Source: Eledone cirrhosa
Lineage: Eukaryota
Direction: 5' to 3'
Assembly (NCBI GenBank): GCA_964016885.1
Contig: OZ024741.1
Coordinates: forward strand, 183,706,001 to 183,770,000
DNA length: 64,000 nt
Shown: positions 1,791 through 51,655 of the stretch, in pieces
Numbering within the stretch: the stretch's first letter is position 1
How the letters are laid out: each line of letters opens with the position of its first letter
The notes under the pieces: generated by a model
The model's database searches: none
Seen by the model: only the letters and a program-made list of their open reading frames with translations
What the model was told of the DNA's origin: nothing
Position numbers and translations under genes: made by a program

Positions 1791-3307
1791 TCTCTCCATA
1801 TTTCTAGAATCACAAAGGGTAATCATTGATTATGTTAGTGATATATGGTACAAACACGTTATAAATCTCAGTTCTCGTGATCAAATATTACCAGTACATT
1901 ACTCTTATTGCCAGATTGTAATTAAAGACAAAATCAATACAGAAGGTCGACTGTGTATGCGTCCTCTATAGATGTATTTTCTACTATTCTCTTAATATGT
2001 TACGAAACGTTTAGAAAGCTTTGTAGTAGGGTATGCTTTGAGGGAGGTTTGTTTCAGCTATTTCTATCTGGCTGATTGACTAATTAGAGAACTTCTTCAT
2101 CAGTACACAATAAAAAAGTAAAAGTATAGTTATATATGGTTCAATCTTATTTTCATGCCTTAAACGAATCAACTGTGAACAACTCTCTAGTTTTGTCTAT
2201 TATAAACTGAGAGGTCGTAAGTTTGCACCTTAGTAAATTGTTGCTGAGGAGTTTAGCCCCAGTGAAGCTCTGACTGGAAATATCTAGGATCGAAGACATT
2301 TAAGCCGAGACAACCCTGTCTTTATTTCATACCTTGGACTATGTTATACACTATTTCTATATTTTTCAAATGTCTGTAGGGTGTGATTAAAAGGGCATTT
2401 AACTGCTATTTCTAGAAGGTGAAGCTTCTACACAAAGGCTCATTGTTAGCTCGTATCTAGACACATACTCCTCCTACAGATATACATATAAACAGGTAAG
2501 ACAGTAGGGTGTAATTTAAGGGAGATTTGACTGCTGTTTCTAGAAGGTCAATCTACTAAGTAGATGGTACTCGATAGGTAATACCCTAGAGAGATCCAAG
2601 TGGGTAGCTATTTTTGCTGTTGTTTCACTTCAAATCAGTCACGACGGAGCAGATCTATGATCAAAGGCGCTAATATCACCTCTTATTTCATGTAGCACTA
2701 TGACTCAGCGTGTCCTTCTTTTAAGACAAACAACAGCTATCTGTCTTTTCCCCTGTCACTCTGCCGTTCAGCCTCTCTGCCCATTCTTCTTTCGCTGTTC
2801 TCTTCTTCCCGACTCGCCTTCTTCGCACACACACACACACACACACACACACACACACACACACACACACACACACATATATTATATATCTATCTATATA
2901 TATTTCTGCGTGGGTGTGTGTCTATTTCTCTCTCTCTCTCTCTCTCTCTCTCTCTCTCTCTCTCTCTCTCTCTCTATATATATATATATATATATATATA
3001 TATATATATATATATATATATAAATTAATATTTGATGAACATTTACATGTTATAGTTGCAATTGACTAATAAGATCGCTAGAGTGAAACATCTTAATTCA
3101 ACAACATAAGGTCTGCCTGTACGATCTAGAAAATAATAAATCAATACTCACAGACTCATATGGGCAAAAAGCCTTGGTACCTAGACGTGCACTATGTGTG
3201 GGACGTTAGAGGACTGGAATAAGCGGTGTGCAAAACCTCGTGTATTTTCGCTACGCTAACCAGACCTTAGATATTTTTCTGAGGTTGAGTTATTTTATTT
3301 TTATCTG

Positions 3308-3467
3308 GGTGCCTATTGATAAACACAGAAATAGTTGATTAACTCACTGCTAATTAGTTAATTATTTTACTATTATACCATCCTTTGTGAAACATGTTTG
3401 AAGTTTGAAGTTCTTACCGATCTGCGGAAAAAGTTTGTATTTTGAATTTTAAACGTGTCTAGGTACC
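3308..3467 (+). ncRNA. Type I hammerhead ribozyme, U3-A8 core variant, long stems II and III
   Basis: Stem I GGTGCCTA/TAGGTACC; core TTGATAA 3316-3322; GAAA 3389-3392; ~19-bp stem III ACATGTTTGAAGTTTGAAG/TTTTGAATTTTAAACGTGT; GTC triplet 3457-3459. Confidence 0.7.
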
Positions 3468-3873
3468 AAGGCTTTTTGCCCATATGAGTCTGTGGGTATT
3501 GATTTATTATTTTCTAGATCGTACAGGCAGACCTTATGTTGTTGAATTAAGATTTTTCACTCTAGCGATCTTATTAGTCAATTGCAACTATAACATGTAA
3601 ATGTTCATCAAATATTAATTTATACTGCTCAGAAGCGATTCCTAGAGCTGAAATGATTGTAAATGACCTCTCTGCGTCTAAACTCTAAGCTATTTATCAC
3701 TGCTCCCCAAGGTGAGCTGAATTTTGTAATCCCATACAAACGGCTATTATTTCTAGCACTATGTGTGGGACGTTAGAGGACTGGAATAAGCCGTGTGCAA
3801 AACCTCGTGTATTTTCGCTACGCTAACCAGACCTTAGATATTTTTCTGAGGTAGAGTTATTTTATTTTATCTG

Positions 3874-4033
3874 GGTACCTATTGATAAACACAGAAATAG
3901 TTGATTAACTCACTGCTAATTAGTTAATTATTTTACTATTATACCATCCTTTGTGAAACATGTTTGAAATTTGAAGTTCTGACCGATCTGCGGAAAAAGT
4001 TTGTATTTTGAATTTTAAACGTGTCTAGGTACC
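3874..4033 (+). ncRNA. Type I hammerhead ribozyme, U3-A8 variant (second tandem copy)
   Basis: GGTACCTA/TAGGTACC; TTGATAA 3882-3888; GAAA 3955-3958; GTC 4023-4025; two G.U pairs of copy 1 are A-U pairs here. Confidence 0.7.
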
Positions 4034-4339
4034 AAGGCTTTTTGCCCATATGAGTCTGTGAGTATTGATTTATTATTTTCTAGATCGTACAGGCAGACCT
4101 TATGTTGTTGAATTAAGATTTTTCACTCTAGCGATCTTATTAGTCAATTGCAACTATAACATGTAAATGTTCATCAAATATTAATTTATACTGCTCAGAA
4201 GCGATTCCTAGAGCTGAAATGATTGTAAATGACCTCTCTGAGTCTAAACTCTAAGCTATTTATATATATATATATATATATATTTCGTTTCTGAATTTGT
4301 TTAGCAAGATTCTTTATCTGAAATCGTGTGTTGAAACCG

Positions 4340-4671
4340 ATATTGTTATACTTTGGGAGGGTCATGTTGCCAATAAGAAACACACGCACCAGTTGCTTTC
4401 ACTTCAATTTATTATAATAAATTTATAATAAATTTATAAATTTATAAATTTCTGGTTGGTTGGTTGGTTCCACAACCAGATAGTTGTTTATATATTGTCA
4501 ATATATATATTGACAATATATAAACAACTATCTGGTTGTGGAACCAACCAACCAACCAGAAATTTATAAATTTATAAATTTATTATAAATTTATTATAAT
4601 AAATTGAAGTGAAAGCAACTGGTGCGTGTGTTTCTTATTGGCAACATGACCCTCCCAAAGAATAACAATAT
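4340..4671. repeat. Spacerless ~332-bp palindrome
   Basis: Arms mirror about 4505/4506 (tgtcaatata|tatattgaca) with one visible mismatch. Confidence 0.9.
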
Positions 4672-48876: not shown

Positions 48877-49397
48877 TATTCAATTCTTTATCAATTTAGA
48901 ATCTTTTCTCAAAGGCACATATACATACACCTCTTTAAAATATACCCATCTTCCTACCTTACTTCAAAGGGCATTATATACTCTATAATACTTGTTTACT
49001 CATTACCCTCTTTCTATCTTCACCTTGTAAAATCCTTCATAACATATACATTTGTTTTTTTGACGTTAGAATATTCATCCGCAATTATTATTATTTTTTC
49101 TCTCTATCATAAAACTTTTTAATCTCAATTTCATCCTTAATTTATTATTTTTTTCTCCCCATCAACGAACTCATTCTTAATACATATTAACTCTTTATTC
49201 GCACATATCAATTCCTTCAATATACAAACTTTAACTTCACATTATTTTTCTCAAATCCTTCTACACACAAACCTTAATAATTTTTTCTCTTCGTTAATTT
49301 TGAAATTGCCACAATACTTATCAACATACACTTTTTTTGACGTTAGAATATTCATCCACAATTATTATTTTTTCTCTCTATCTTCATACATAAATTT

Positions 49398-49800
49398 CCT
49401 TCGTTAATTTTCAAATTCTTTTAATTTATACATTATCTTCCAACGGTTCTCAACCTCTCTATATAAAACAATATATCTTTTGTCAGTTATAAAAACTATC
49501 TCTTTCTCTCTATCACCCATCTCTCCCTCTCCACCTTCACTCTCATCTCCTCCCCCTTTTTTTCATCCTCCCCCCCCTCCCTAAATAAAATATATTTTTT
49601 CCTCATACATATCTTCCCTTCGTTAATTTTCAAATTCTTTTAATTTATACATTATCTTCCAACGGTTTTCAACCTCTCTATGTAAAACAATATATCTTCT
49701 CTCAGTTACAAAAACTATCTCTTTCTCTCTATCACCCATCTCTCCCTCTCATCTCCTCCCCTTTTTCATCCTTTCCACCCCCCCCCTCTCTAAATAAAAT
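49398..49800 (+). repeat. ~220-bp tandem duplication in the PLE 3' UTR
   Basis: ccttcgttaattttcaaattc...taaataaaat at ~49398 and ~49617. Confidence 0.85.
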
Positions 49801-49902
49801 ATTTTTCCCAATATCACACATCAATCTAAAACCACTTTTCATATGTTGATTTAAAACTGCACTATCCACAAGTGTTTTTTAGCCTTCATATCATGTTCTC
49901 CT

Positions 49903-49972
49903 GTTTTATCTGATGAAAACACAAATATTATTGCATGATGATGTTTGTTTTTGAAATGCGCATAATAAAATA
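49903..49972 (+). ncRNA. Type I hammerhead ribozyme, 3' pLTR
   Basis: Identical to 46201-46270; cleavage predicted after 49964. Confidence 0.92.
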
Positions 49973-51655
49973 CATGGAACTCCTTTAACCATCTTTTGAT
50001 CTTATATTATGTATACTCCAGTCCTACAAACTGTAGAGTGCTTCTTATCCGATATCTGCATTGCTTTATTGTACTACAATAAAACTCACCTACTACATAT
50101 ATATATATATATATATATATATATATATATATATATATACATACATACACACACACACTCACACACACACACTCACACACATATATATATATATATATAT
50201 ATACATACATAGACACACACACACTCTCTCTCACACACACACACACACACACACACACACATATATATATATATATATATATATATATATATATATATAA
50301 AACAATCTCTATACCTCTCATTTATATATATATATATATATATATATATATATATATATATATATAATGTCTGCGGTGCAAAGACCGCGAAAACCATAAA
50401 TCAGAATATTACTCGATGAATGTTGAGATACAGAGTGGATATATTGAAGAGGTACAATCTGTGAGTCTCGCGGTTGGGAGCTATCTCTGCAATACATTAC
50501 GTGTGACTGTGTGCGCGTGTGTGTGTGCATACACGTGCACAATCCCATATCTATGTACGTATGTGCGTATGTATATATATATTTACACACACACACAAAC
50601 ACATACAGACACACACACATACACACACACACGCGCACACACACACACACGCACACACACACACGTATATATATATATATGCTCATTTACATACAAATTC
50701 ATTTATATAATTTTCTTCATTTCGCGAGATATAAAGGGCTTCTTTTTTGTTTAAATTGTTTATTTGCTTCTGACTTCCAAAGTTTCCACAGTAGTGACAA
50801 TGGGAGATGAATCCTCAAAGCAGTGATAGTTAACTCCCCGTCTCGAAGGAGAGGGCAATAAACGAATGAAACAAATCTCTTGTGTATTGAGCGAAATTGC
50901 CCCCAATAACAGCAATATTTACAACACTTACAGTAACAACGACGCCAACAACGGCAACAACAACAACTATAAGACAAACAGCAGTAGCAGTACCATCGCC
51001 ACGACCCCCCCCCCGACACCTTCCACCACCACCACCACCATCCCTTTCAACAATGTCCGTGATGACAATGATAACATCATGGACAATCAAGAGACAACTC
51101 GCAGTCAGAAGAAAAACGATGTTAATCTTAATATAAACACATGTTAAAAATGACTGCCACAAGAGCAAGATTAGCAATGACAGTGTCAACAATACTGTCA
51201 ACAAAAATAAACACCCAAAGTAACAGCAAAAATGAAAAGGAAGGCAACGAAGACAAATGTACTTGCCGCAGATATTTAAACCTCAATATTATGGCACAAT
51301 TGGTACGACTATCAGCACGAGGCAAGAGTACAATTCCCCGAAGAGTTGTACGAAGAAATAAGGAAATAAAACAGCATACTTTATTATTATATCATTTTAT
51401 TTATTTATTTATTTATTTATTTATTTATTTATCTCTTTATTTATTTATTTATCTATTTATTTATTTATTTATTTATTTTTGTGGTTGTTGGATTGTCCGA
51501 ATCGTTTCAGCGTCGAATAAAAGTTCTTAGCAATATTTTTTCTGGCTCTTTTACGTTTTGCGTTTAACTCTGATCAACTTTGTCTTTCATCCTACCGGAG
51601 TCAGTAGTATAAAGTACCTACAATTCTACTATTGCAATCTCCCCCACACGAATAT

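Follow-up and report, generated by a model that had tools for sequence, protein, structure and literature searches.

A stretch of 64,000 nucleotides from contig OZ024741.1 of Eledone cirrhosa (positions 183,706,001 to 183,770,000, here called the window) contains members of four non-coding, tandemly organized repeat families, A, B, C and D, together with coding Penelope-like elements (PLEs). That the four families are non-autonomous PLE passengers is very highly probable, and that their helper is an element of the Hydra clade of PLEs is highly probable. The reading that we favour, with a probability of about 0.72, is that A–D are copied in trans by the reverse transcriptase (RT) and GIY-YIG endonuclease of a Hydra element, which is predicted to recognise two short stems common to passenger and helper. 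The initial annotation of this DNA had proposed trans mobilisation by a Naiad PLE into (TA)n. Mobilisation by a PLE into (TA)n is well supported, whereas the helper is a Hydra-clade element and not a Naiad.

The window is microsatellite-rich animal DNA from a genome of 3.0 Gb, and its repeats have a cephalopod-like look. Its masked self-comparison recovered the head-to-tail periods on which the claim of four tandem-redundant non-coding units had been based: 566/567 nt for A, 2063 nt for B, 666 nt for C and 487 nt for D. The families are low in GC (35–38%) and, as had also been claimed, unrelated in sequence. Their majority sequences share with one another only chance AT-rich patches of up to 36 nt, resemble neither of the coding elements described below (Hydra1 and Hydra2) beyond short AT-rich patches, and have longest ATG frames of 29–100 amino acids, the 100-residue frame being that of B. 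Genome searches, in which the best 40 candidates were scored per family query, gave 874 first-look candidates for A, 1765 for A2 (an older A subfamily, 76% identical to A), 4637 for B, 5368 for C and 2236 for D, so that A–D are all multi-copy, and not single-copy as the initial annotation had allowed they might be. Evenly placed stretches totalling 440 kb held five places for C, four for D and none for A or B, which is too sparse for copy numbers. Copies of A match one another at 96–100% identity, and A is the youngest of the four families. Arm lengths form a continuum, 82–1243 nt in A and 100–908 nt in D, and from less than 0.3 to 5 units overall. The earlier description of each copy as slightly more than one monomer did not hold: the A copy in the window has 1.9 units, the C copy is redundant by just 24 nt, 16 of 30 D copies selected by their 3' part fall below one unit, and one A array found genome-wide has 5.2 units. 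A–D are dispersed, multi-copy, Penelope-like repeats with head-to-tail units, ragged 5' ends, 5' inversions and (TA)n 3' ends; the terminal redundancy and 5' inversions claimed to resemble those of the coding element at 45624–50098, and the (TA)n 3' end claimed for each family, were all recovered.

The ends of these insertions follow a simple rule. In the subsets of scored loci used for multi-locus statistics (for example 30 D, 26 A, 21 A2, 30 C and 29–30 B), the 3' end of the main arm lies at one of two fixed sites, here called start sites 1 and 2, in 27/30 D, 26/26 A, 20/21 A2, 29/30 C and 21/29 B loci, and TA is present at these ends in 26/30, 26/26, 20/21, 26/30 and 19/29 loci, respectively. 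The two sites are 73 nt apart in A, 106 nt in D, 114 nt in C and 144 nt in B. Hydra1 has the same two-site pattern, at unit positions 3619 and 3702 (83 nt), and in Hydra2 the distance is about 90 nt. This spacing is the PLE tail. Inverted and main arms end at opposite sites in 29 of 30 classifiable pairs, a further 17 pairs being unclassifiable. A second sample, selected by the tail and with some insertions counted from both arms, gave 19 opposite and 0 same pairs for A, and 11 opposite and 2 same for D. A–D display the insertion signature of PLEs: truncated 5' ends, partial tandems, an inverted 5' arm, a tail that is optional and a microsatellite as target.

In the window, A consists of an inverted arm (3019–3186, minus strand; unit 327–494) that ends 3' at start site 1 in the TA tract 2975–3022, and a main arm of 1.9 units of 567 nt (3189–4263, plus strand) that ends at start site 2 in TA 4261–4282 and carries no hammerhead ribozyme. 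B has 1.08 units of 2063 nt (30017–32248; its sense strand is the minus strand) and ends at start site 1 in TA 29965–30016. C is one 666-nt unit plus 24 nt (32325–33014, plus strand), ending at start site 1 in TA 33015–33044, and D has 1.19 units of 487 nt (40377–40956, plus strand), ending at start site 1 in TA from 40957 onward. A 5'-truncated A2 copy (41108–41447, plus strand) also ends at start site 1 in TA. B and C lie head to head across one TA tract (29965–33044); insertion into TA regenerates the target, and therefore elements stack.

Each start site has an AU-rich patch directly 3' of it, outside the copied terminal unit, and no more than about 10 nt further on comes a predicted 4-bp RNA stem of the form N-Y-U-C ... 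G-A-R-N'. In A both sites have GCTC/GAGC. B has ACTC/GAGT at site 1 and GCTC/GAGC at site 2, as does Hydra1; C has GCTC/GAGC at site 1 and TCTC/GAGA at site 2; D has GTTC/GAAC at site 1 and TCTC/GAGA at site 2; and Hydra2 has ACTC/GAGT at site 1. The stem was first noticed in A–D and at Hydra1 site 2, and was then predicted and seen at site 1 of Hydra1 and of Hydra2; in Hydra2 itself no stem was seen at start site 2, where Hydra2-like relatives do have one. On the plus strand of the window, the A stems lie at 3627–3648 (site 1, with a second copy at 4193–4214) and 3702–3717 (site 2), the C stems at 32356–32391 (site 1) and 32469–32486 (site 2), the D stems at 40474–40504 (site 1) and near 40585 (site 2; TCTC...GAGA in the family, mutated in the window copy), and the Hydra1 stems at 46313–46337 (site 1, with a second copy at 50015–50039) and 46403–46420 (site 2). 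The B stems lie on the minus strand at 32018–32077 (site 1) and 31916–31933 (site 2). On their sense strands, the four majority monomers (3,770 nt in all) contain five occurrences of a tight version of the motif, each of them at a start site.

The motif was also recovered when ends were collected de novo. The scan covered 2,267 TA-adjacent ends in 301 sequences (1.52 Mb), which are mostly flanks of family loci and not a random sample. Of the 81 clusters that had at least three ends and whose continuation was known, 25 had the tight motif, compared to a background of 1.0% (298/30,000); about 10 of the 25 are the focal families. When only the 5' half of the stem was used as an anchor, 30 of the 40 clusters had a Watson–Crick outer pair, and so did 20 of the 30 that lie outside the focal sites; at random positions the figure was 570 of 1854 (31%), and 0 of 100,000 shuffles reached the observed value. 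Compared between unrelated families, the stem covaries. A dozen other TA-inserted families of this genome are marked by it, as are published Hydra elements of coral and sea cucumber, and the further stem-bearing clusters comprise more coding Hydra families as well as tandem units of about 520–630 nt, with or without a hammerhead. In published Hydra consensi, read by eye, terminal stems are perfect in three of six (Hydra-2_Amil, Hydra-2_Ajap and, twice, Hydra-1_Ajap) and partial in the other three (Hydra-1_Crog, Hydra-1_Obim and Hydra-1_Amil). We consider that the stems probably serve as an RT recruitment signal. Literature searches, mostly at the level of abstracts and with thin coverage of subscription journals, found no conserved stem at PLE start sites.

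These end statistics bear on the idea that A–D spread at the DNA level, as satellites, miniature inverted-repeat transposable elements (MITEs) or Helitron-like rolling-circle elements whose presence in TA tracts would be incidental. Tandem arrays, the MITE-like appearance of a further family (E, below) and the very high density of TA tracts in this genome would all agree with it. Against it, polarity is strict, 3' ends are fixed while 5' ends are ragged, inversions begin at the alternative 3' end, and stems and ribozymes occur on the sense strand only, all matching an RT-coding element. Spread at the DNA level is largely refuted by the end statistics, and we regard it as extremely improbable.

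The coding element at 45624–50098 (plus strand; Hydra1) had been identified as a Naiad, an assignment that its RT-before-C-terminal-GIY-YIG order and canonical hammerheads overturn in favour of the Hydra clade. Hydra1 begins with an inverted arm (45624–46101), has two pseudo-long terminal repeats (pLTRs; 46091–46396 and 49793–50098, plus strand), each with one canonical hammerhead (46200–46270 and 49902–49972, plus strand), and ends 3' at start site 2 in TA. Its reading frame (46412–48876, plus strand) encodes RT and then GIY-YIG, and is broken in the window copy by a frameshift and a stop. An intact copy elsewhere has the same domain order in a single 821-aa frame with RWT (for RWK), DKT, a CNCRIKNKC linker (CxCx5C), CNLC (CxxC) and CLH (CxH). 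Hydra PLEs are described as having one open reading frame (ORF) with a C-terminal GIY-YIG, DKT, RWK, a linker of the form CxCx5C, the motifs CxxC and CxH, a hammerhead and (TA)n as target, and Naiads as having an N-terminal GIY-YIG endonuclease, DKA and no canonical hammerhead (PMC8557442). Hydra1 agrees with the former in frame layout, motifs, a canonical hammerhead near the 3' end and insertion into (TA)n, and departs from the latter in that its endonuclease is not N-terminal, both pLTRs carry a canonical hammerhead, and DKT replaces DKA. Pfam found no RT or GIY-YIG family in four protein pieces of the coding elements; the comparison with published Hydra proteins was made by eye, and the clade assignment rests on domain order, motifs, hammerhead and target.

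Hydra1 is young: 137 scored copies are 98–100% identical, many with open 821-aa frames, an age that agrees with the 96–100% identity of the A copies. A query with an RT piece gave 45,646 first-look candidates, which will include other Hydra families. A 5'-truncated Hydra1 3' end (28883–29235, minus strand; hammerhead 29079–29009) ends in TA, and a second element, Hydra2 (4962–7510, plus strand), is degenerate and 5'-truncated, with RT and endonuclease remnants, a hammerhead at 7405–7465 (plus strand), a 3' end at start site 1 in TA, and an insert resembling a short interspersed element (SINE) at 6494–6687. A further Hydra-like family (L296, cluster L005+74; window end 22388, minus strand) has an endonuclease match 1.1 kb upstream of its end and the stem, and a strict hammerhead at only 2 of 26 ends, though Hydra elements are described as always carrying one.

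A helper from the Naiads, or from another TA-targeting PLE clade, appears improbable. Naiads insert into (TA)n, have tails and, like A, are without hammerheads (PMC8557442), and Octopus Naiad consensi carry one GCTC...GAGC stem near the 5' end, in the few hundred bases viewed, for which chance could suffice. Because of this stem, the signal may extend beyond Hydra and have a wider distribution. The coding elements of the window are nevertheless Hydra elements with stems at their own start sites; Naiads are set apart from the helper because they have an N-terminal endonuclease and no canonical hammerheads; and cephalopod Naiads are described as long-dead remnants (PMC8557442), in contrast to the 96–100% identity among A copies.

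The initial annotation had itself raised the possibility that the units are just pLTRs or 3' untranslated regions (UTRs) of longer coding PLEs, which would be unsampled and copied in cis. In favour of this, short solo-pLTR insertions of Hydra1 are numerous; in Xenopus, homology between retrozymes and pLTRs is frequent, with 24 of 57 families matching Repbase transposable elements, nearly all of them PLEs (bioRxiv 10.64898/2026.07.22.740005); and the genome searches scored the best 40 candidates alone. However, the units close on themselves with no ORF between repeats, their frames are short, and a Hydra protein match lies near only 14 of 185 family loci, none adjoining the 5' end of an arm; the same-strand upstream matches that were checked are separate insertions with TA ends of their own. 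Nor did BLASTN match the units to Hydra1, to Hydra2 or to any of 40 Hydra 3' stretches (a redundant set from a handful of families). We therefore hold this origin to be very improbable, and a remote descent of the units from a PLE UTR to be possible.

The four families had been described as each carrying one type I hammerhead per monomer. Hammerheads were called by a pattern search for the type I core and counted per locus if intact in an arm. At least one arm has an intact core in 21/30 B, 22/30 C and 43/72 D loci, so that the description stands for these three families; it fails for A, where none of 45 young loci and none of 25 A2 loci has a core (0/70). In A, a relaxed search gave poor candidates only (a minus-strand U3 variant and an 8-letter core, dropped as they had no stems and no conservation), and Rfam gave nothing. 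The B hammerhead (30075–30140, minus strand) has an intact core and, where stem II has its base, a U.U like that of published Hydra hammerheads; its second copy (about 32138–32203, minus strand) has a mutated core. That of C (32646–32728, plus strand) is intact in the family and broken in the window, where G12 is missing, and that of D (40789–40869, plus strand) is intact, with stems of 6/3/3. A strict motif occurs five times in 51,367 masked window bases, always in D or Hydra elements, compared to a mean of 0.01 in 200 Markov simulations. Rfam models detected no ribozyme in B+C or D, three families whose ribozymes have long stems II, and among the matches listed for the whole window (150 of 277) there were microsatellite-driven miRNA matches only. 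The hammerhead is not the common feature, because A, the youngest family, is without it, which suggests that it is optional cargo and not the entry ticket.

This matters for the classical route of non-LTR retrozymes, in which tandem transcripts are cleaved by an essential ribozyme into monomer circles that are copied by a PLE RT, here with Hydra as helper. B, C and D do have well-formed type I hammerheads, one per unit; circles have been shown for coral, mussel and axolotl retrozymes (PMC7229834); and in D the 5' ends are dispersed, as expected from a circle or a long multimer, and arms read through the cleavage site. On the other hand, A forms arrays of up to 5.2 units without a hammerhead, and both cores are intact within one arm in only 1/30 B, 0/30 C and 3/72 D loci and in none in the window, counts that come from limited locus sampling. 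Hydra1 arms end at the cleavage site in 0 of 56 cases, insertion of an anole PLE in vitro was unaffected by hammerhead mutants (PMC11167929), and only one of nine Xenopus retrozymes cleaved in vitro (bioRxiv 10.64898/2026.07.22.740005). As an account of all four families the retrozyme route is already contradicted by A, and overall we judge it unlikely; it is compatible with the stems. Circular intermediates for B–D specifically are a somewhat better prospect, at less than even odds on our analysis.

The 5' ends are informative in this respect. In a search with 95 candidates, 28 of 56 Hydra1 arms begin within 10 nt (unit 3440–3449), and 15 of 75 A arms begin within 15 nt, where 2 would be expected. 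Such clustering suggests a linear RNA with a defined 5' end, together with template switching; both clusters also hold short palindromes, which could instead guide the joining of two arms. Solo Hydra1 pLTR insertions are many (L181-L210; in the window at about 49840) and consist of 260 nt plus a 175-nt inverted arm. The 6-nt palindrome at their unit position 3440–3449 could possibly mark where transcription starts, in the manner of a strong-stop product. In D, 5' ends seemed to pile up at the hammerhead cleavage site, which was mostly a query-boundary effect, since C behaved likewise where its query began; pooled D arms retain a mild excess near the site (11 of 99 in 15 nt, 3 expected). Pile-ups in B and C were artefacts of alignment breaks.

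The mechanism that we propose for trans copying by a Hydra element draws on the anole Poseidon PLE. There, two internal sites at which reverse transcription begins define the tail, cutting and extension take place on both strands, and the RNA must continue 3' of the start; a dimer is predicted for the protein, and the hammerhead can be dispensed with (PMC11167929). By analogy with the behaviour of that element in vitro, a Hydra protein dimer would bind the two stems and nick both strands of a (TA)n tract. One cDNA would then be primed at each AU patch, through a pairing with TA that we infer here. The product would be either a single long arm or a head-to-head pair of arms. Where a copy exceeds one unit, its source could be a tandem transcript, a switch of template across the terminal redundancy or, in B–D, a hammerhead-made circle.

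Several observations weigh against this proposal, in addition to the Naiad stem mentioned above. The stems are short, with local folds of –1.5 to –12 kcal/mol, and RNAfold formed no proposed pair at C site 2 or at the mutated D site 2 of the window. The outer pair is not complementary in 10 of the 40 clusters; the clusters are partly non-independent, some being subfamilies, and the motif was defined from the same data. A looser motif has a background of 9.4% and gave one false positive at a palindromic MITE-like end. The start site of the anole PLE is reported as non-homologous to its target (PMC11167929), which leaves pairing between TA and the AU patch a supposition of ours, and several Hydra families coexist here as potential helpers.

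Compared to published systems, A–D resemble non-LTR retrozymes in being non-coding, low-GC tandem units with one type I hammerhead per unit (B–D) and a proposed mobilisation by PLEs (PMC7229834; bioRxiv 10.64898/2026.07.22.740005). The initial annotation had called the units unusually large. C and D are not, because the published range is 51–972 bp (bioRxiv 10.64898/2026.07.22.740005), whereas B, at 2.06 kb, lies beyond it; the repeat finder of that survey stopped at period 1000. A–D differ from retrozymes further in that A has no hammerhead, none has pLTR homology to the sampled helpers, and most copies are partial tandems, dispersed and with the tails and inversions of PLEs. The available parts of both retrozyme papers describe no common cis-signal (PMC7229834; bioRxiv 10.64898/2026.07.22.740005). 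The Chlamys non-autonomous elements, such as MRC1, are likewise non-coding PLE passengers with pLTRs, head-to-tail arrays and no hammerhead, but generally share 3' sequence with their autonomous partner (PMC8557442); A–D have no such 3' similarity by BLASTN against the sampled Hydra UTRs, and share just the 4-bp stem motif and the AU patch.

Among Hydra-clade PLEs, including Hydra-1_Obim (Craig et al. 2021), Hydra1 has the usual C-terminal GIY-YIG, motifs, hammerhead and (TA)n target, but its unit of 3.7 kb with a 1.2-kb 3' UTR exceeds the published size of generally <3 kb, its tail is 83 nt as against 30–40, and it is very abundant and young here (PMC8557442). A word search of passages of the same paper found no non-autonomous Hydra partners and no stems (PMC8557442). 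The anole Poseidon element PAc (Frangieh et al. 2024) is similar in its two internal RT start sites that define the tail, the cutting and extension of both strands and the dispensable hammerhead; it is different in that the start sites are close together, in one AC-rich stem-loop inside the ORF, and in the available text neither a conserved recognition motif nor a trans-acting passenger is defined (PMC11167929). In the accessible portion of a 2026 octopus repeat annotation, the words 'ribozyme' and 'non-autonomous' are absent (PMC13282606). The helper–passenger idea is not new, because retrozymes, their proposed PLE origin and the hammerhead-less Chlamys elements are published. What is likely new is the pair of fixed 3' ends, each with a covarying stem, common to passengers and a Hydra helper.

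Other repeats in the window and the genome share some of these features. Family E is a MITE-looking element of 210 nt (26523–26732, plus strand), with a 130-nt palindrome, an 80-nt tail and an ACTC...GAGT stem after site 1; it may be read as the head-to-head product of two short arms from the two start sites. About 57 further places of roughly 200 nt (clusters L002+2425, L002-1261) make it very abundant. Further tandem families end in TA and have the stem, with no strict hammerhead in the 1.5 kb upstream of their ends; they include one set with a unit of about 600 nt (L017, L063, L064, L149, L282, L287), one of about 633 nt (L030 and window end 56622) and one of about 545 nt (L209). Hammerhead-bearing TA-ended families with the stem include L103, L242, L265 and L290 (units of about 520–550 nt), L014, L054 and L114, and L095 and L257, among which GTTC/GAAC and TCTC/GAGC variants occur. 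Palindromic or inverted-repeat elements, many TA-bounded, lie at 4340–4671, 21616–22030, 28514–28817, 28824–29373, 29385–29671, 35240–35310 and 41497–41601, and may be true MITEs or further head-to-head products. Besides the insert in Hydra2, copies of an abundant SINE-like repeat are found at 8544–8950, 16386–16562, 33131–33313, 42906–43135, 44625–44830 and 57080–57215. Judging from their translations, 58000–59730 and 18212–18661 are presumably degenerate coding remnants resembling long interspersed elements; GC is higher at 58–60 kb. The single tRNA call by ARAGORN (tRNA-Asn with an odd anticodon, 11803–11895) lies outside the families, beside simple repeats, and is probably spurious.

PLEs are the sister group of telomerase, and the question of how they select and prime their RNA has been stated to be open; their link to retrozymes has so far rested on co-occurrence and pLTR homology. 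Passengers that have no detectable homology to their helper and share a tiny covarying stem at both start sites provide a concrete candidate cis-element, and the stem offers a way to recognise PLE passengers among unclassified repeats. More generally, and with the balance tipped slightly in favour, Hydra RT may select its template by a minimal bipartite signal of two AU-patch-plus-stem modules, one per dimer subunit and nicked strand, whose conservation would span corals, sea cucumbers and cephalopods. Any RNA that is transcribed in tandem and carries the signal could then be mobile, whether or not it has a ribozyme and at lengths that reach at least 2 kb, and this would have seeded a dozen or more unrelated passenger families, some with the look of MITEs. 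If this is true, the bipartite signal would be the missing cis-element of retrozymes, and would explain both the PLE tail and the head-to-head inversions.

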